Sequence record: OL739525.1
From: Escherichia phage dw-ec
Direction: 5' to 3' (one strand)
Length of the DNA: 64,000 bases
Part shown: in pieces, positions 4,124 through 59,400 of the stretch
Numbering within the stretch: position 1 is the stretch's first letter
Layout of the letters: every line of letters begins with the position of its first letter
The notes under the pieces: model-generated
Database searches by the model: none
What the model was told of the DNA's origin: nothing
The model's input: the letters and a program-made list of their open reading frames with translations, nothing else
Program-made: the position numbers and the translations under genes

Positions 4124-6364
4124 TCACATCTTGCAAGCTTCACAACCACCATCAGAATCTTCTTGTGCTAAAGAGTCTGCTGATTTTGTTCTACTATTAA
4201 GGTAATACAACGACTTACCACCCAGTCTAGCAAAATTCAGAATAAACTGCATCTCAGCTTTCACTGATAAACGTCCACCTACCAATTTAGAATAATCTAG
4301 CCAAGAATCACAAGAAATTCCTTGGTCCGTAAACTTGGTAAAGATACCATACATTTCTGCAAGGTCTTTAGCCGGAGTGTCCCAGGCGGACTGGTAGAAC
4401 ATTTTCAGTTTTTCGTAGTCTGGAACAATAAATAATACACTACCTTTCTGACTTTGTTTATACATAATAGTATCACGAACAGGATACAGAGAGTTAGTAG
4501 TATTGCTTACCAAACTGCTGGACTCATTAGGTGCGATAGCAGCCAAGACACTGTTACGGATACCACCTTGTTCAATGATTTCAGCACGTAAGCCTTCCCA
4601 GTCCATTTTAAGATCAAAATTACCGATACTATCTACTGTTTTAGCATAAGTGTCAATTGGTAGCCAACCTTGAGGCCATTTGGTCTTATCAATCCATTCC
4701 GCATTACCTTTTTCCTTAGCCAGACGCAGAGAGGCTTTTGCCAACCAGAAGTAATGACGTTCTGCAAGTTCATGCATTAATTTTTTAGCGTAAGCATCTG
4801 AATAATTTACAAAATTACTTGCCAAGTAATGCGCTAAGTTTGTAATGCCTACACCAATAGATCTACGTGCTTTAGCAGTTATTTCGTTATGTTTAAATGG
4901 ATAATCCATTGTTTCAATAACGTTGTCAATTGTCAATACAGTGTAGTATGCAACATCCTCATATTCTTCAGGTAAGACACGACCAGCAACAATAGAAGAT
5001 AAGAAGCATAAAGCCAACTCTTGATCTTCTGTATTCTCACCAGTAAAGAGATCCGGCATACTGTGGAAAGCTTTAGTTGGTAAGAAGATCTCTTGACACA
5101 GGTTTGATTGATACACCGTATCCAGGAAAGGTGTATGGTTGTTAACGTTGTCAGCAAAGAACATGTAAATACGTCCTGTTTCTGCACGTTGAACAATAAT
5201 CTCTGTCAGAAGATCACGAGCCTTAACAAATTTTTTCTTAATGCGACGACGGCTTACTTTGTCATAAACTGCATCAAACTCTTCTTCACTTTTATACAAA
5301 GCTTCATAAAGTTCAGGAGCATCATCACAACTAACTAACATCCAATCTTCGTTTTTTGCTGCTCGACGCAAGAATGAACGGTTAACAACAATAGAATAAT
5401 CCAGTTTGTCTACTCGTTTATCTATAGGTGTTGTTGGATTCTTCAGTCGAATCAGATCGTCGAAGTCTGGTTCAAGTATGGTAAAGGTAACTGTAGCACT
5501 ACCTCCACGGCTTGCTTGCTTCGAAGCTCCAACACTATCTTCCATCCATTTCAGATACGGAAGAAGACCACCATGAATAATACGATTATTCTTAACACCT
5601 TGACCTGTGGCACGAGTTTGAAGATTAACACCAATACCTGCGTTATTCAACGTATACTCATGAGCTAAGTAATTAGCAATGGCTAAAGACTCTGCTGTGT
5701 CATCTGCACGGAATAAACAACAAGACGCACTTCCTTTGATTGGAGTTCGTAGAGTTGTCAGATATGGTGATGGCAGATTAATCTTAAGATCGCTAACATA
5801 AGTATACAGTTTTTTAATATCTTCTATACGGCGTTCTTTTGGTTGGATCTCCATAACCTTCATTGCGATACCAATGAAAAGAAACTGTGGAGACTCATGC
5901 ACCACATCGTTTACTGCATCTCGGATAAGATATTTATCCACCATCTGACGTAAAACAGAATAGCCATAAGTTAGATTTTTATTATGCTTTACAATCTTAC
6001 CAATTTCTTTGATCTCTTCATCAGTATAATCCATTTTAGCCCAATGTCCACGTTCTACCATATCATGATAAAAGGTATTCAGTGAAGGGATACTGTGGTA
6101 TCCCCCATGAGCCTGTTTGTAAATCATACCCAGAAGAAGTCTTCCTGCCATATCACTGTAAGCTTGTGTTTTCTTGTCAATACACGCTGCAATCATTGCT
6201 TTATGCAGATCACGTGTAGACACACCGTCATAACACCGCTTCACAGCTTCTAATTCAATTTCAGACCAGTTTAGTTTACCTGCTGCAAATTCAGACCACT
6301 TGCGAAGTTTTTCTGGATTAAACTCCTCTGTCTTACCGTTAGATTTAGTTACAAAACGAATCAA
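4124..6364 (-). CDS. nrdA: ribonucleotide reductase class Ia large subunit
   Basis: 746 aa; recognised as NrdA by overall sequence character and size, with C-terminal Cys residues. Confidence 0.92.
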   Translation of the reverse strand: MIRFVTKSNGKTEEFNPEKLRKWSEFAAGKLNWSEIELEAVKRCYDGVSTRDLHKAMIAACIDKKTQAYSDMAGRLLLGMIYKQAHGGYHSIPSLNTFYHDMVERGHWAKMDYTDEEIKEIGKIVKHNKNLTYGYSVLRQMVDKYLIRDAVNDVVHESPQFLFIGIAMKVMEIQPKERRIEDIKKLYTYVSDLKINLPSPYLTTLRTPIKGSASCCLFRADDTAESLAIANYLAHEYTLNNAGIGVNLQTRATGQGVKNNRIIHGGLLPYLKWMEDSVGASKQASRGGSATVTFTILEPDFDDLIRLKNPTTPIDKRVDKLDYSIVVNRSFLRRAAKNEDWMLVSCDDAPELYEALYKSEEEFDAVYDKVSRRRIKKKFVKARDLLTEIIVQRAETGRIYMFFADNVNNHTPFLDTVYQSNLCQEIFLPTKAFHSMPDLFTGENTEDQELALCFLSSIVAGRVLPEEYEDVAYYTVLTIDNVIETMDYPFKHNEITAKARRSIGVGITNLAHYLASNFVNYSDAYAKKLMHELAERHYFWLAKASLRLAKEKGNAEWIDKTKWPQGWLPIDTYAKTVDSIGNFDLKMDWEGLRAEIIEQGGIRNSVLAAIAPNESSSLVSNTTNSLYPVRDTIMYKQSQKGSVLFIVPDYEKLKMFYQSAWDTPAKDLAEMYGIFTKFTDQGISCDSWLDYSKLVGGRLSVKAEMQFILNFARLGGKSLYYLNSRTKSADSLAQEDSDGGCEACKM

Positions 6365-6380
6365 CTTCTCCTCCCTATTA

Positions 6381-6635
6381 TTAATGCATATTCAAAACAT
6401 CTACATCATAACCGAACTTCATTTCATTAAAAAGTCCATTAGCATATAGAAAACCTTCAAAATGAGTTATGTCATCAAACCCTTTTGCTTTTGCTCGACG
6501 GTCTGCTTCTTGTCTTTTAGGAGATAAACGTTTTGAAGTGTCTAGAATTACAGTTACATTACAACCAACAGTTTCATCAAAATAGACTTCGATTTCACAG
6601 CCTTCATATTTATTATCAGTCATTGTCCCTCTCAT
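6381..6635 (-). CDS. hypothetical protein (84 aa)
   Basis: ORF track. Confidence 0.45.
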   Translation of the reverse strand: MRGTMTDNKYEGCEIEVYFDETVGCNVTVILDTSKRLSPKRQEADRRAKAKGFDDITHFEGFLYANGLFNEMKFGYDVDVLNMH

Positions 6636-7052
6636 TGATTAGTATCATCTGCTTTCGCAGGATCATAAGAGTTACCGAAATCATCCATCTTAATATGTGA
6701 CGCACCCCAACCTGTAAATTCTTCATCACCAAAATGAAAAATATCATTTTCTTGATAGATTCGTTTAAAACCACAATTAGGTGAAACAGGGAAAGTGAAA
6801 AGCGTTGTATTTGCAAACACTACTCGCTTATCGTTATTGCTTCGGATATTCACATTACGCTCAACAGAATAGTGTGAATCTTCAGCCATACCCAGCATTA
6901 CAAGCGACGCTCTAATAACAGCATTTTGTTTCTCGTGTGGGATATTGCCATTGTGTTTATTTGATTCTAGTTTCCAGATAGGGGTAGACATTACAGTAGA
7001 CATGCTTACGGTAGCCCAAGTTGTAGTATTTACTAATGACATATTTTCTCCT
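6632..7052 (-). CDS. hypothetical protein (about 140 aa)
   Basis: Track ORF 6632..7075 trimmed to ATG at 7052 preceded by AAGGAG RBS. Confidence 0.5.
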
Positions 7053-18942: not shown

Positions 18943-19299
18943 TTAGTAGTGCACACGAATCATTTTAATACCATAACGCTGCATGGATTCTTTTGCAAGC
19001 ATGAATTTATCCCCAGCGGCGGGATTAGAAGTATGCACGAAAATGGTAGGTGAACCAAAGCAAGGTTTACCAAACGCCAGAAGTTCTTCCAGGTGCAGGA
19101 AAACATCATACCCATCTTGGTCTGACTCCATACCTAAATCGTTGTCAAAATGCCACTCGTCTACAAAACGATAACCCTTCTGCACCTCATTCATGTAACG
19201 AGAGGCAAGAAGTTCCTGTGAGGTTTTAAACCAGATTGCATCTGGACAACCATAATCTTTTGGATCACGTAAATCATCAAGCCAAATAATAGTACCCAT
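18943..19299 (-). CDS. hypothetical protein with receiver-domain-like signature
   Basis: IIWLDD ... FDNDLG ... VHTSN ... AGDK spacing resembles CheY-like DD/D/T/K landmarks; 118 aa. Confidence 0.4.
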   Translation of the reverse strand: MGTIIWLDDLRDPKDYGCPDAIWFKTSQELLASRYMNEVQKGYRFVDEWHFDNDLGMESDQDGYDVFLHLEELLAFGKPCFGSPTIFVHTSNPAAGDKFMLAKESMQRYGIKMIRVHY

Positions 19300-21174: not shown

Positions 21175-21287
21175 TTCTTACCTCCTTTGTTGTCAAAATA
21201 ACTTACCAGAACATCGTGAACCACACACATGGCAAAAATCAGAACAATTGTTGTCAGGACTGGATTCTCACTAATTAGTGCTATCAT
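21171..21287 (-). CDS. small membrane protein (about 38 aa)
   Basis: Track ORF 21171..21368 trimmed to internal Met; hydrophobic helix. Confidence 0.3.
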   Translation of the reverse strand: MIALISENPVLTTIVLIFAMCVVHDVLVSYFDNKGGKK

Positions 21288-21594
21288 CTTCAACCACCTC
21301 CAATTGCCTTTCGAGTTTGACTTTGTTTGAGAACTGATAATGACACAACTTACATTGCATGTCAACAATCTGATCGTGATTTAACCCTACAATTTTAACT
21401 TCCTTTGCACCATCCCATTCCAAATACTCAAAGCCATCCAAATGATTACTCTTGTCCAACAAGAATGCTATCTGCTGCCATTCAATCTGAATGTCATTTA
21501 AATGATATGCTGCACAGAAGATATCCTCGTAGTAAAAGACGATCATTGTCATTGCTTCGTCCAGCACAACTACCTCTTGTCTTGTAAATCTCAT
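21271..21594 (-). CDS. hypothetical protein, first gene of leftward operon (107 aa)
   Basis: ORF track; GGAGG RBS; adjacent to divergent control region. Confidence 0.45.
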   Translation of the reverse strand: MRFTRQEVVVLDEAMTMIVFYYEDIFCAAYHLNDIQIEWQQIAFLLDKSNHLDGFEYLEWDGAKEVKIVGLNHDQIVDMQCKLCHYQFSNKVKLERQLEVVEDDSTN

Positions 21595-21840
21595 TCTAGC
21601 CTCCTAAACGCGTCTCTGACGCACTTTTTATATATAAGATGATAAATCACCTTACCTAGTAAGTGAACTTGCTCTACGAGCCTCTTATGAAGCTTATGTT
21701 ATAGGCTATACTATTGCTACCTGTTTAAGCAAGGTTTTTGCACACAGAAAATAATTTTTAATTAAACTCTTGACTTTTGTGTTCGAAGTATGCTACCCTA
21801 GAAATCTATTAACGAGCGCAGCGAGTTAAGGTTTTAGGTT

Positions 21841-22040
21841 GTTGATGTAGTACTCTGTACTCCGTACTAGATTAATAATTATTAAATATTAATAATAAAT
21901 AATTATTAGATCTAACAAACAGGTACAGTGTATCAGAACTGGTACGTACAGATCAACTTCTATCAATTAAAAAAATAAAATAATAAATTATTATAAATAA
22001 TACTTGATCTATAGATCAGTATGAAGTACAGTACGTAACA
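21841..22040. repeat. AT-rich divergent control region with clustered GTAC-core repeats and short palindromes
   Basis: Eight GTAC cores in about 200 bp; palindromes TAGATCTA and TGATCTATAGATCA; long AT tracts; no ORFs. Confidence 0.5.
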
Positions 22041-22064
22041 TCTTAACAAGAATGGAGGTGTGCA

Positions 22065-22250
22065 ATGATTAGTGAGAATCCGTGCAAATGGCATCATGTG
22101 CCTATTAAAGATTGTATGTCTTGTAATCCACGTTCTATTTATAACATTGCATCTTATGATGATGACAATGTGTTAGACGATGATGAAGGCTGGGAGGATT
22201 TGGATTGGACTGGTTATGAAACCAAAAAGGATAAAATTATTCCTAGTTGA
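22065..22250 (+). CDS. hypothetical Cys/His-containing small protein (61 aa)
   Basis: GGAGG RBS; first rightward gene. Confidence 0.45.
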   Translation: MISENPCKWHHVPIKDCMSCNPRSIYNIASYDDDNVLDDDEGWEDLDWTGYETKKDKIIPS

Positions 22251-22287
22251 CTTAAGATATCCTTCGTGCTAAACTAGAAGTGAGGAG

Positions 22288-22539
22288 ATGCCGATCACTC
22301 CCCATTTGGGGTTCGAAGGATATATGCAAAATAGCTTTTATTTTAGGTGCCGTGCTTGTAATAGGCATTTGACAAACCACTCCAGACGTGATAAAAATGG
22401 AGTCATCAAGGAATCAGACCTCTGTTCTATTTGCACAGGTTTGGCTTTTGATGATAGTCCCGAAAGGGTTTATCAGCATCAATGTATAACAGACGTTCTC
22501 GTGTCAAACTTGGTAGAGGACGAACAACTAACAGATTAG
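22288..22539 (+). CDS. hypothetical zinc-finger-like protein (83 aa)
   Basis: GAGGAG RBS; CRACN...CSIC Cys pairs. Confidence 0.45.
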   Translation: MPITPHLGFEGYMQNSFYFRCRACNRHLTNHSRRDKNGVIKESDLCSICTGLAFDDSPERVYQHQCITDVLVSNLVEDEQLTD

Positions 22540-22547
22540 GAGGAACA

Positions 22548-22796
22548 ATGTCTCTATTAGAAAAACACGTGTTTGAAGATGGTAACGGCAATGCAGTTTT
22601 TCTTTTCCATCCAGAAAAATACACATCTGAAAACAATGGTACAACTTCTATTGTAATCACTAAAGATGTTAAAGTTATTGATTTCTTGGCTCTGATGCGA
22701 GAGATGGATCTTGAAATTAATACTTTTAACGCAGAAGCTTTGGTTGTTGCTCTTCTGGAAAAGAAAGATAGTGAAGAAGTAGCAGAATATGCTTAA
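22548..22796 (+). CDS. hypothetical protein (about 82 aa)
   Basis: Track ORF 22482..22796 trimmed to ATG after AGGAGG RBS. Confidence 0.45.
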   Translation: MSLLEKHVFEDGNGNAVFLFHPEKYTSENNGTTSIVITKDVKVIDFLALMREMDLEINTFNAEALVVALLEKKDSEEVAEYA

Positions 22797-22803
22797 ATAA
22801 CTA

Positions 22804-22833
22804 TTGACAAACGTATCCTTCATATGTTAGGAT
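22804..22833 (+). promoter_or_regulatory. sigma70-like promoter P1 of tRNA array (CTATTGACAA ... TGtTAGGAT) with 10-bp inverted repeat
   Basis: TTGACA, 18-bp spacer, extended -10; AACGTATCCT / AGGATACGTT inverted repeat spans spacer and -10. Confidence 0.5.
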
Positions 22834-23042
22834 ACGTTCATCAAGTGTGGTAACAGGGTCGTTGACTTTTGTTAAGAGGGGCTTGCACTGCGGTAGTGTT
22901 AGAGACTACTTCTTCAGAGGTTAGCTACCAAAGAGGAAAAGGAATAGTCTCGGCTCAAGAACTTTTACGCTGAAAGTTGGGCTTGGTCTTAGAGAATGTA
23001 GCGGTTCTCTACAATCGTCAGCGTCTCTGTTACCACATTTAT

Positions 23043-23117
23043 GGCCCTGTAGCTCAATGGGAGAGCTGTCGGCTCATAACCGATAGGTAGCTGGATCGAA
23101 ACCAGCCAGGGCCACCA
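23043..23117 (+). tRNA. tRNA with CAT anticodon (Met or lysidine-type Ile2)
   Basis: Cloverleaf folds by hand: GGCCCTG/CAGGGCC acceptor, anticodon loop CTCATAA, CCA encoded. Confidence 0.75.
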
Positions 23118-23524: not shown

Positions 23525-23610
23525 GGTAGATTGGTGAAATGGTAGCCACAACAGTTTGCTAAACTGTAGTCGGAAACGGCGTGTAGGTTCGAGTCCTACA
23601 TCTACCGCCA
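23525..23610 (+). tRNA. tRNA-Ser (GCT), class II
   Basis: GGTAGAT/ATCTACC acceptor, anticodon loop TTGCTAA, long variable arm, CCA encoded. Confidence 0.8.
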
Positions 23611-23740
23611 AGTTCTTTTTAATATAGCTTACTTTAATAGAGTAAACTTTCGGCAGATGGCCTCCACCATCTTACCGATAACTCATAGTTAGTGGTGTGA
23701 ACACTGGCTATTTTAAAAAGAATTTAAATATTAGTATTTA

Positions 23741-23828
23741 GGTGAGTTAATTCCGTAGGGGTAGCGGGGCAGACTGTAAATCTGTTATCATTGCGATTCG
23801 GGTGGTTCGACTCCATCACTCACCACCA
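23741..23828 (+). tRNA. tRNA-Tyr (GTA), class II
   Basis: GGTGAGT/ACTCACC acceptor, anticodon loop CTGTAAA, long variable arm, CCA encoded. Confidence 0.8.
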
Positions 23829-23834
23829 AATTAA

Positions 23835-23920
23835 GATGAGTTGGCTGAATGGTTTAAGCGGCGGACTGTTAATCCGTGTTCGAAAGAACGATATAGGTTC
23901 AAATCCTATACTCATCGCCA
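23835..23920 (+). tRNA. class II tRNA with apparent GTT (Asn-type) anticodon; isotype uncertain
   Basis: Good acceptor and T-arm, 15-nt variable arm, anticodon stem GCGGA/TCCGT with loop CTGTTAA; class II architecture with an Asn anticodon is non-canonical. Confidence 0.55.
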
Positions 23921-56402: not shown

Positions 56403-59400
56403 ATGGCAACATTCCCAACATATCCAGCAACGTCTCTCGAACAGGGCGTAGACCTGGTTATTTTCTCATCTAACCAACTCCATGATGTTATTAATGGAAG
56501 TGCTACAGAGAGTATTGAAACAGAATCAGGGTTGATACCAACCCTGAGAAAAGCCCTTGTTGACAACTTTTTCTTTAAAAGCCCATTGGATTGGGCGCAA
56601 GGCACAAACGAAACAGTTTTTAACCAACTTCGTTATTTCCAGAATGGAGTATTGAGCGGTTATTACTATGCTCCTAACGCTACATTGGTTAACCCAATCC
56701 CTATGCAAGGGACTCCAGTAGGAGATAACAACTGGGTATTGTGGGGACTGAAAACAGAACAATTAGCAACAGAAGTCACCCCGTGGGTATACTCTGGTGC
56801 AACTGGTTATGAAACAGTAATTAGTCCTCCTTACATCTTTGATAGTGCTATTGTTACGATCAATGGTGTTATTCAGGTTCTGGGGGAAGCTTTCCGTATA
56901 GAAGACAGTAAGATCATCTTATCTGAACCTTTGGGACACGATCCTGCAACAGGACTGCCAAACAAGCTTTTTGCTTATATTGGTAAAATCGTAGCTTCAG
57001 CAGATACAGATCCTAATCTAGAGAACCGTCTTGTTAGTTTAGAAACAAAAACGGAAGAACTAACAGAAAGCATGGATAAAGTCCCTCTGCAAACTATTGC
57101 TCGTAAGTATGGTTTGTTAGATGATGAGGTGGCTTACGCAACAGCAGGTCAATCGTTAACAGGGATTAAAGCTCTGTACGATCCGGTAGCACAGTCTTCC
57201 TACACATTACCTCCTAACATCACAGGAACTTTAACATCCTTATCTGTTTCTGGAGTAATGACTTATTCTGGAGGATCTGTAGACCTTTCTGCACTGGCTG
57301 TTGAGCGTGGACAGTTTGTTCATTTGCCTACAAGCTTTGGTAATAACGTAACTCTGACAGCTAAAAATCAGACGATTGGACGTGGTGCTGGTCGTTATCG
57401 TTGGGCTGGAAGTTTACCAAAAAGTATTTTGGCCTCTGATACATTGGAGACAAGCGGAGGATTAGGTCCAAATGCATGGGTTCTGACTAATACAGAAGGA
57501 CTGTTAACCCCTCGTGGTGGAACATACAACGATCTATTCGATGTTGTCTACTTGTCAGAATTTGCTAACAATACAACTACCTATACCACACCAGAAGCAG
57601 CTTTCCAGGCGGCACTGTTAGCAGCAAAAGCTTCGAAAAGCAAGATTCTCGATGCTTACGGTTGCGACATGACTTTCACGACAAGCTCTTTTGATATTCA
57701 AGATATCACTTTGCGTGGTGGTGTGTTCCGTGGTCAACGCGACTATCGTGTGCAGAATGCTACAGTAGAAGGCACAACTTTCCGTAACTCTCGTGTTATG
57801 TATTGGGGTGGTGCTGTGCGCATGTTCGATTGTTTGTGGGACGGTGCTCCTCGCGCAGGTCAAGTTGGTAGCTTGGTATTCCAAGGCAACCCAATATCAG
57901 GTACTTTTGAAATTGATAATTGTACTTTTAAAAACGGGTTATATGGTATTCTTCAACAAGGAACAGGGGAACCAGTAACACGCGGTGTCTTCCGTAACCT
58001 TACCTTCATGGACATGCAAGGTGATGCAATAGAACTGAACGTCATCAATAAACATTATGACGATGGTTGTGTGATTGAGAATATTTACCTGTCTAATATC
58101 GATGGGACTAACGCTCCTATTCCTCTGTCCAACTGGGGTATCGGTATCGGTGTAGCTGGTAAAGGACCATATGGTTACGGAATCCCTGATGATCAATATT
58201 GTAAGAACATTACAATTCGTAACGTTTTTGCAAAACGTTGTCGTCAGATTGTCCACGTAGAAGTTGGTCGTAATATCTCTATCGAAAACATTCATGGCGA
58301 TCCAGATCAAACCGTATCTGTTGGGACAGGTTTGGCAACTGGCGCAGTTGTAATGTATGGAAGTAAAGACTTTACGATTGATGGTGTTTATGGAGAGCCT
58401 AAAACAGACGGTAGCACACTTGCAAGTAATATCCGTATGATTTACTTGGAGTGGGGAACTAACGCAGTTCTGGATGAAGAGGGTAATCCGGTAGTTCCGG
58501 CACAGGGCAGACCTTCAAACCCATGCTTTAACTATTCTGTTCGTAACGTTCACACCAAAACTGGGCGTGTTTTTGCGGGAGTTTCCGCTGGGCCAGGTTA
58601 TGAAAACAGAGTTAGCTTTGAAAATATTCGTTGCGCTGCCTTGCAGTTGTTCGGTATAGCTTCTTGGCTTTCAATGTCTAACATCACCTGTAATATCTTC
58701 GATTGTGTTGGTCAACCTGAATCTGGTCCAGGGACATTTTATGATGGATTCTTCCGTAGAGAAAAATCTGTTCTTGAAATGGTTAACGTAAACTGTTACC
58801 CAGATGGCAAGACGATGGTTACTGGTCGTCCACAGTGGAGCCGTTGCCGTTACTCGGATATTCATCGTGTCAACTGTAATGTTGAAGCTAATATGTATAC
58901 CAATATCGCAGGTGGTATTGGAGCTATTGTAGGGACAACGGGCAAAGTTTATTACTTAGAGCCTAATCCTAGTCGAAACATTGATGGAATGCATTTCCCA
59001 ACAGGGAAAGAGTTTGACAAAGGGGATATGATAGTCAAGGCGGATAATACGTTCTTCCTTGTAACAACAAGTGGGGCATATATTCCAGATATCCCAGCTT
59101 TCGGTATTCGAGCTACACAGGCAGGAGATACCTTCCTGACACAGAACTTGACTCCTAACGGGACAGCAACAAATGCTTCTTGGTTGTATCATTACCCTCT
59201 GTCAGCAGGGACACGTATCCGTATTCCTGGCGCTGGTGTAGGTGGAGCAGATTTGGACACAGTTATTACTCGTGCACCTTATCAAGATAATGATACGTGG
59301 ACTAACCCAGTTAAAATAGACATTGCAGATCCAATTGTAACGCCTACAAGTGCTGGAGTTAGAATTAAAACCATACCTAATGATTCCAGTAATGTTTCTG

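Follow-up and report, generated by a model that had tools for sequence, protein, structure and literature searches.

A divergent AT-rich intergenic region of Escherichia phage dw-ec as a candidate compound early promoter region with a clade-specific GTAC island

The primary replication origin of phage T7 combines promoters 1.1A and 1.1B with an A/T-rich region, and the T4 origins oriF and oriG each pair a middle promoter with a downstream unwinding element. Among promoter-associated elements, a typical UP element spans about 20 bp. Phages related to phAPEC8 have been widely isolated and serve in therapy cocktails. Their replisome is T7-like, and no origin has been defined for the group (PMC3606486), which we count in favor of one alternative weighed below, that the region described here is an origin. 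This region is an intergenic gap at positions 21595-22064 of a 64,000-nucleotide stretch of Escherichia phage dw-ec (OL739525.1), hereafter the window. We favor, with an even balance of confidence and doubt, the reading of this gap as a compound early promoter region that carries UP-like A/T tracts and whose GTAC words would have multiplied through slippage and duplication.

A 2-kb query around the gap matched about 70 GenBank phages, 62 of them over the full length at 95-99% identity, and nearly all of the matches were Phapecoctavirus (Stephanstirmvirinae), the ~150-kb E. coli myoviruses related to phAPEC8. The dw-ec window is likewise Phapecoctavirus DNA, with ~98.7% identity to DE16, ZCKP1, and ESCO13. 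Records labeled Campylobacter (B15), Acinetobacter (ABPW7), Klebsiella (ZCKP1), and 'Dompiswa' (TSP7_1) are 98-99% identical over the 2 kb, and PsgM04F, labeled a Pseudomonas phage, falls in the phiWec188-like branch at ~83% identity; the host labels of these records may be unreliable. The gap corresponds to positions 57694-58164 of phAPEC8 and is bounded by a leftward ORF (21271-21594) and a rightward ORF (22065-22250). In phAPEC8, the block to its left is devoted to DNA metabolism (ligase, exonucleases, thymidylate synthase, and ribonucleotide reductase), and the block to its right contains three small genes, a tRNA cluster, and then lysis, terminase, and structural genes. The genome is organized into four transcription blocks and so has two divergence points, of which the gap is one. 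Public records leave the region without annotation or tag it only as 'repeat_region', and a literature search found no paper describing it.

The tRNA genes of the window start at 23043, ~1 kb beyond the first rightward gene, and the first of them was the only match to Rfam covariance models in 21400-23100 at E-values up to 1. Between the Ser and Asn tRNAs (23610-23835), where the phAPEC8 annotation has a tRNA-Tyr, ARAGORN calls none, indicating that the tRNA set differs among close relatives. No initiator or DNA-binding family was recognized among the ten proteins adjoining the gap, the sole informative match being a cREC_REC (cyclic-phosphate processing receiver) domain (E-value 1.2e-13) in a 118-aa protein encoded on the minus strand at 18943-19299. 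This protein is labeled 'RNA ligase and tail attachment protein' in one relative.

Sigma-70-type hexamers with 16-18 nt spacing are correctly placed before genes on both strands of the gap and define three candidate promoters, PL, P1, and P2. The candidate leftward promoter PL (TTCACT-17-TATCAT, 21639-21667, minus strand) was found by consensus scan. An inverted-repeat search detected a GCGTC-AGA-GACGC hairpin (21610-21622, minus strand) in what would be the 5' leader of the leftward operon, adjoining its RBS on the upstream side, and GCTC...GAGC stems were read by eye at the equivalent place in phi92 and Tr1. On the plus strand, P1 (TTGACT-18 nt-TACCCT, 21770-21799) was read from the sequence and has an upstream TGc that would make it an extended -10 promoter. 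It is followed, 14-26 nt past the -10 hexamer, by a box CGAGCGCAGCGAG (21813-21825) recognized by comparison of five lineages, and then by a variable AAGGTTT(T/A) repeat. GTAC cluster 1 comprises the tandem heptads GTACTCT GTACTCC GTACTAG (21850-21870, plus strand) and runs directly into A/T tract 1, which is 38 nt of pure A/T (21871-21908) and near-palindromic, with 18-nt arms that are 89% complementary. The palindrome TTAGATCTAA (21906-21915), which includes a GATC, precedes GTAC cluster 2 (21923-21954), an imperfect inverted repeat GGTACAGT...ACTGGTAC followed by GTACGTACAGATC. A/T tract 2, again 38 nt of pure A/T (21965-22002), stops 1 nt short of the -35 hexamer of P2, the position of an UP element. 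Candidate promoter P2 (TTGATC-17-TACAGT, 22004-22032, plus strand), also read from the sequence, overlaps a perfect 14-bp palindrome TGATCTATAGATCA (22005-22018) and GTAC cluster 3 (22026-22034). An RBS, GGAGG, and the first rightward gene (22054-22250, plus strand; start codon 22065) complete the region; the 61-aa product has no Pfam match and belongs to PHROG 26411, whose function is not assigned. The two palindromes are those that the first-pass annotation had picked out, and it had also noted long A/T tracts.

To locate the divergence point in more distant phages, homologs of the first leftward gene were used in four more lineages: phiWec188 (a deep Phapecoctavirus branch), phi92 and FKP3 (both Justusliebigvirus), and Citrobacter phage Tr1. 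The P1-P2 interval can hardly be aligned across these four, and the order of elements is unchanged: PL, P1, box, ~100 bp of TA-rich DNA with GATC words (e.g., TAGATCTAACAGAC), an A/T-rich tract of ~30-50 nt, P2, RBS, and gene. The PL spacer AATCACCTTACCT is kept in phiWec188 and phi92, and TAGATCTAACA(G/A)AC, the counterpart of the palindrome TTAGATCTAA, is found again in phi92 and Tr1. The first-pass annotation had described the gap as a divergent AT-rich control region, a description upheld by candidate promoters on both strands whose positions are conserved in sister genera.

Across five lineages, between which the neighboring protein has just 33-57% identity, the P1 elements TTGAC and (T)GCTACCCTA vary little or not at all, and 12 of the 13 positions of the box CGAGCG(C/A)AGCGAG are invariant. 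The stem flanking the box is TTAAC/GTTAA here and CCCCC/GGGGG in phi92, a weak covariation in a set of five sequences. A P1-type promoter with the box recurs at phAPEC8 134530(-) and 20447(-), where the box is one base longer, and at a second locus in Justusliebigvirus contigs, where it is followed by an RBS and a membrane-protein gene, without an A/T tract. P1 and its box therefore precede ordinary genes elsewhere and would represent a class of promoter rather than a unique element. The module can be written as TTGACT-N14-TG(C/G)TACCCTA-N12-15-CGAGCG(A/C/AT)AGCGAG and is present at at least three loci per genome in two genera (also in contigs L030, L032, and L033); the exact search of viral contigs for the P1 box gave few loci, and the comparative sample is small. 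The box could act as an RNA 5' element or as a regulator site. Many phAPEC8 early promoters are trailed by a different conserved hairpin, GGGCGGCAATGGTGCCGC, annotated as PHIRE promoters (e.g., 556-575 and 143712-143731), which has zero occurrences in the 64-kb window.

The -35 (TTGATC) and -10 (TACAGT) of P2 are only moderate matches to consensus, and a simple consensus scan did not return it, both of which count against the compound promoter reading. Counterparts are present as TTGACT-17-TAGAGT in phi92 and phiWec188, TTGACC-17-TACACT in FKP3, and TTGATC-17-TACACT in contig L031, and in five lineages an A/T-rich tract adjoins the P2 -35, ending within a few nucleotides of it. A GATC lies inside the P2 -35 hexamer or spacer in four of the five lineages, and the phage encodes a putative N6-adenine methyltransferase (phAPEC8 gp078); judged from the sequence, the Dam methylation state could modulate P2. 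GATC enrichment was rejected as a special feature of the gap, where four copies occur in ~110 bp, as other 250-bp windows genome-wide reach 5-6. LexA, TrpR, DnaA box, IHF, and Fis consensus sequences, compared by eye, gave no convincing full site in the gap.

GTAC is the most depleted of the 256 tetramers in the window, where a second-order model predicts 200.6 copies and 59 are present (ratio 0.29). Eight of the 59 copies, starting at 21850, 21857, 21864, 21923, 21942, 21946, 22026, and 22031, fall within 185 bp (21850-22034), where ~0.19 would be expected, and no other 200-bp stretch of the window has four or more. A Poisson estimate gives a probability of order 1e-10 for the cluster, a figure that treats the copies as independent when they are partly duplicates of each other. 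The whole phAPEC8 genome contains 157 GTAC against 450 expected, and the homologous spot is its sole cluster, with nine in 250 bp; the next best has four. All sequences quoted in the first-pass annotation are present where it placed them, and its count of eight GTAC cores in about 200 bp is exact and far above chance.

Eleven phAPEC8-clade sequences, aligned throughout the gap, show what varies among close relatives. Conservation is lower in the gap than around it, with 96.5% identity to DE16 compared with 98.7% over the surrounding 2 kb. Five GTACT heptads are found in most relatives and three in the window, the overall range being 3-5, and the AAGGTTT(T/A) unit is present in 1-3 copies. The nieznany phage has lost exactly one 105-bp module (cluster 2 plus A/T tract 2), EP57 is without cluster 3, and in BI-EHEC A/T tract 2 is expanded by 12 nt. 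These changes in repeat number, deletions, and expansions all occur in viable isolates. Together with their GATC and TACAGT words, A/T tracts 1 and 2 are direct-repeat partners at 105-bp spacing, and local alignment of the two 105-bp modules scores 51, against a mean of 34 and a maximum of 51 in 300 shuffles. Since the alignment is equaled by the best shuffle, the case for a module duplication is carried mainly by the repeat pair and the exact nieznany deletion. Of the 10 other aligned relatives, 6 have a disrupted TGATCTATAGATCA palindrome. With BI-EHEC left out, 3 of 40 GTAC columns and 7 of 166 other columns are variable, and each of the three GTAC-column changes abolishes a GTAC. GTAC columns are thus no better conserved than their neighbors, and no purifying selection on the GTAC cores is detectable.

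Beyond the phAPEC8 clade, to which the island's GTAC cores are confined, the number of GTAC between P1 and P2 falls to zero in phi92 and phiWec188, one in Tr1, and three in FKP3. Conservation of the repeats in related genomes was among the checks that the first-pass annotation had called for, and the GTAC core is not conserved, being ATAC or missing at the matching place in phi92, Tr1, and phiWec188. At the place of the cluster 1 heptads, phi92 carries ATACATACTCTATACTAA; in cluster 2, GTACGTACAGATC of the window becomes CTCTATACTGATC in phiWec188. Likewise, GTACTCTGTACTCC of the window corresponds to ATACTCTATACTAA in phi92, and GTACGTACAGATCAAC to CTCTATACTGATCAAC in phiWec188. FKP3 and the window have in common GTACAG(A/T)GTATCA and GTACTA...TAGATTA, and from this sharing we infer that a few GTACs are probably old and that the remainder arose through duplication within the phAPEC8 clade.

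The genome of BI-EHEC is a special case. Nine of its 10 island GTACs are altered, mostly to ATAC, and in 48 kb aligned with the window 20 of 36 GTAC sites differ (56%), against 4.8% of tetramers on average. No other tetramer comes near this rate of change, and GATC and CCWGG are unaffected. Within coding sequence, nine of the changes are synonymous and four conservative, typically TAC to TAT on the coding strand. In the xxG-TAC frame, where a silent change is possible, 6 of 9 sites are lost, compared with 7 of 19 elsewhere, a difference that is not significant. Since GTAC alone is affected, sequencing error at a modified motif was considered as an explanation and is less likely, given that the changes are mostly synonymous, their strand tracks the coding strand, and there is a frame bias. 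The predominance of synonymous changes argues for real evolution, and we take the GTAC loss in BI-EHEC to reflect, most likely, recent selection against GTAC. Its ATAC-bearing island also implies that the phage tolerates ATAC for GTAC throughout the island.

The observed/expected ratio of GTAC differs between lineages, from 0.87 in BME3 and 0.51 in phiWec188 to 0.35 in phAPEC8, 0.29 in the dw-ec window, and 0.15 in BI-EHEC (33000-82999). Other palindromes are depleted elsewhere: positions 90000-139999 of phiWec188 have zero CTAG in 50 kb (ratio 0.00) and a GGCC ratio of 0.27, and positions 40000-89999 of BME3 have a CATG ratio of 0.42 with GTAC near normal (0.87). Restriction-site avoidance in virulent phages has been reviewed (PMC12707154), and phages of this group are reported to be highly sensitive to restriction systems (PMC8594841). 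Lineage-specific palindrome depletion is the pattern expected from restriction avoidance and fits the reported sensitivity (PMC12707154, PMC8594841), and the genome was probably purged of GTAC by this route. BI-EHEC resembles a restriction-site purge caught midway.

The first-pass annotation had proposed that the repeats are binding sites for a phage or host protein, which would read GTAC words (CTGTAC, GTACT) as an array serving as an operator or enhancer for the divergent promoters. The extreme local density of one word is what such an array would produce, as are sites that persist despite genome-wide avoidance and the orientation of CTGTAC, which is one way in cluster 1 and the opposite way in clusters 2 and 3. 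In phi92 and phiWec188 the A/T tract is preceded by a related word, CTCT(A/G)TAC, and Tr1 carries CTCTATAG. Nevertheless, with the 7-bp spacing neighboring sites would face different sides of the helix, copy number varies between three and five heptads with no excess conservation, and none of the ten adjacent proteins belongs to a recognized DNA-binding family. The replacement of GTAC by ATAC in BI-EHEC and phi92 means that any such protein would read RTAC or TAC and not GTAC. We therefore depart from that proposal: with the cores limited to the phAPEC8 clade and nearly all of them changed in BI-EHEC, an array of GTAC-reading sites seems improbable to us. The RTAC-containing sequence that precedes the A/T tract could be bound by some factor or by none.

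The island could instead be tied to the avoidance itself, as a retained target or decoy for a GTAC nuclease or methyltransferase, or as a cleavage or nicking site that starts recombination-dependent replication. The island's clade does show the strongest avoidance (0.29-0.35, against the ratios of phiWec188 and BME3 given above). However, BI-EHEC, with the strongest avoidance of all, has erased its island, and ~150 other GTAC sites are still present in the genome. We know of no mechanism that links a retained GTAC island to avoidance, and this explanation appears very improbable.

The observations are more readily accommodated by a compound early promoter region. PL would drive the leftward DNA-metabolism operon, the deeply conserved P1 would fire rightward through its conserved leader box, and P2, ~230 bp past P1, would act directly before the first rightward gene. 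The pure A/T tract touching the P2 -35 would most likely be an UP-type element, contacting the alpha subunit or easily bent, that boosts P2. In the phAPEC8 clade, a unit consisting of RTAC repeat, AGAT(C/T), and A/T tract was apparently duplicated at 105-bp spacing, and the RTACTNN heptad would have grown by slippage. Slippage and duplication together may have built the island of 8-10 GTACs from a small ancestral number. The G in the GTAC core would not be functionally important, and the island would be conspicuous only against a genome otherwise purged of the word. Promoter activity, the role of the UP element, and the direction of the evolutionary changes are all inferred from sequence comparison, and several features sit awkwardly with the reading. 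A/T tract 1 has no convincing promoter beside it, so that an UP role would cover tract 2 alone; the tracts, at 38 nt in the window and as much as 50 nt in relatives, have the lowest duplex stability in the genome and exceed what a promoter needs; and the persistence of 8-10 GTACs in ~60 GTAC-avoiding genomes is left as a historical accident. The first two of these points are why we hold the compound promoter reading no more firmly than we do.

The same features bear on a possible replication origin, which the first-pass annotation had also raised. By nearest-neighbor energies, the homologous region of phAPEC8 is the least stable duplex genome-wide at 50, 100, and 200 bp, ~4.5 standard deviations off the mean; A/T tract 1 is one of the two least stable 50-bp windows, and the phAPEC8 counterparts of the two 38-nt A/T runs are the longest A/T-only runs in 147.7 kb. 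An origin is compatible with such extremely unstable DNA on the downstream side of a conserved promoter. In a transcription-primed origin of the T7/T4 type, transcripts from P1 (or P2) would invade the A/T tracts, form an R-loop, and prime leading-strand synthesis by the family-A polymerase of the phage, and a T7-gp4-like primase-helicase would load on the displaced strand, for which the RTAC/GTAC repeats could be loading or priming sites. Conserved P1 precedes tract 1 by 65 nt, and with it the genome's least stable duplex, in which both of the longest A/T-only runs are found, and the region has a rough dyad symmetry in which GTAC repeats and an A/T tract flank a central hairpin on each side. 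The lack of a recognizable initiator gene nearby also suits a transcription-primed rather than an iteron-type origin. The locus, moreover, is at a transcription divergence and a local minimum of cumulative GC skew.

Against an origin, GC skew follows transcription in this genome and reaches its global minimum not here but at the second divergence point, at 135.9 kb in phAPEC8. We set GC skew aside as uninformative: its switch coincides with the switch in transcription direction, and it follows the four transcription blocks. The authors of the rV5 study likewise found GC skew confounded by transcription direction (PMC3606486). P1 with its box also occurs at loci that lack A/T tracts, nieznany is viable without one tract and cluster 2, and in sister lineages the single A/T tract is invariably found next to the P2 -35, which is where an UP element would lie. 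There is also a competing candidate, phAPEC8 5512-7022, which is 1.5 kb of gene-free, repeat-rich DNA and includes the second least stable 100-bp window. On balance, we regard a transcription-primed origin in the gap as a doubtful but serious alternative. In its more specific form, the unit of RTAC/GTAC repeats and A/T tract fed by P1 would be the primary origin in phAPEC8-like phages and, more broadly, in Stephanstirmvirinae, opened by transcription and with the palindromic RTAC words serving as primase-helicase loading or priming sites on both strands; this we think unlikely.

The competing gene-free region (BME3 L018 1-1300; phAPEC8 5450-7050) contains several words, e.g., GATAATGATTATCATTTGCA and AATGATAATTATTCTCAT, that resemble the Fur-box consensus closely. 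Its phAPEC8 5512-7022 portion corresponds to the terminal-repeat region of the sister-genus phage BME3, for which a 342-bp terminal repeat has been reported (PMC12210895). A genome terminus, terminal repeat, or pac site in the dw-ec gap was accordingly rejected, as the BME3 repeat sits in this other gene-free stretch, which is 1.5 kb or larger and has different repeats, and the AATGATTATCATT motif of the BME3 region is absent from the 64-kb window. Database records that end near the gap are arbitrary cuts before or inside genes and have no terminal repeat on them.

The comparison thus yields a concrete conserved promoter architecture, including what would be a reusable class of promoter plus leader box at three or more sites per genome, and the gap offers the single best sequence-based candidate for an unwinding element. 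If the GTAC motif arose incidentally as the region evolved and is not itself the functional word, effort on the wrong probes can be spared. The lineage-specific avoidance of 4-bp palindromes may be of broader interest than the island, and the BI-EHEC purge provides a natural experiment on restriction escape.

Set against known systems, the gap resembles restriction-site avoidance as reviewed (PMC12707154) in the lineage-specific depletion of 4-bp palindromes (GTAC here, CTAG in phiWec188, and CATG in BME3) and in the largely synonymous losses of BI-EHEC; unlike it, the island is a local exception, and the avoidance concerns the surrounding genome. Short direct repeats adjoining an A/T-rich stretch recall iteron-type origins such as lambda ori and plasmid oriV, but the gap has 3-5 copies of 7-bp units instead of phased 17-22-bp iterons, and no adjacent initiator gene. 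An iteron-type origin fails on these grounds, with only 7-bp units and 0 of 10 neighboring proteins matching a replication initiator family. The likeness to T7 and T4 origins is a promoter that has the genome's most readily melting DNA within ~60-200 bp downstream, in phages with a T7-type replisome (PMC3606486); unlike those origins, the promoter of the gap is of host type rather than of the phage-polymerase or MotA type, and its class is also found elsewhere without A/T tracts. Compared with E. coli rrnB P1, the tracts are longer (38-50 nt against ~20 bp), one of them is duplicated away from a good promoter, and no Fis-like sites are recognized; like rrnB P1, the gap has a pure A/T tract immediately before a -35 hexamer, that of P2, and tandem promoters at the head of an operon with stable-RNA (tRNA) genes.
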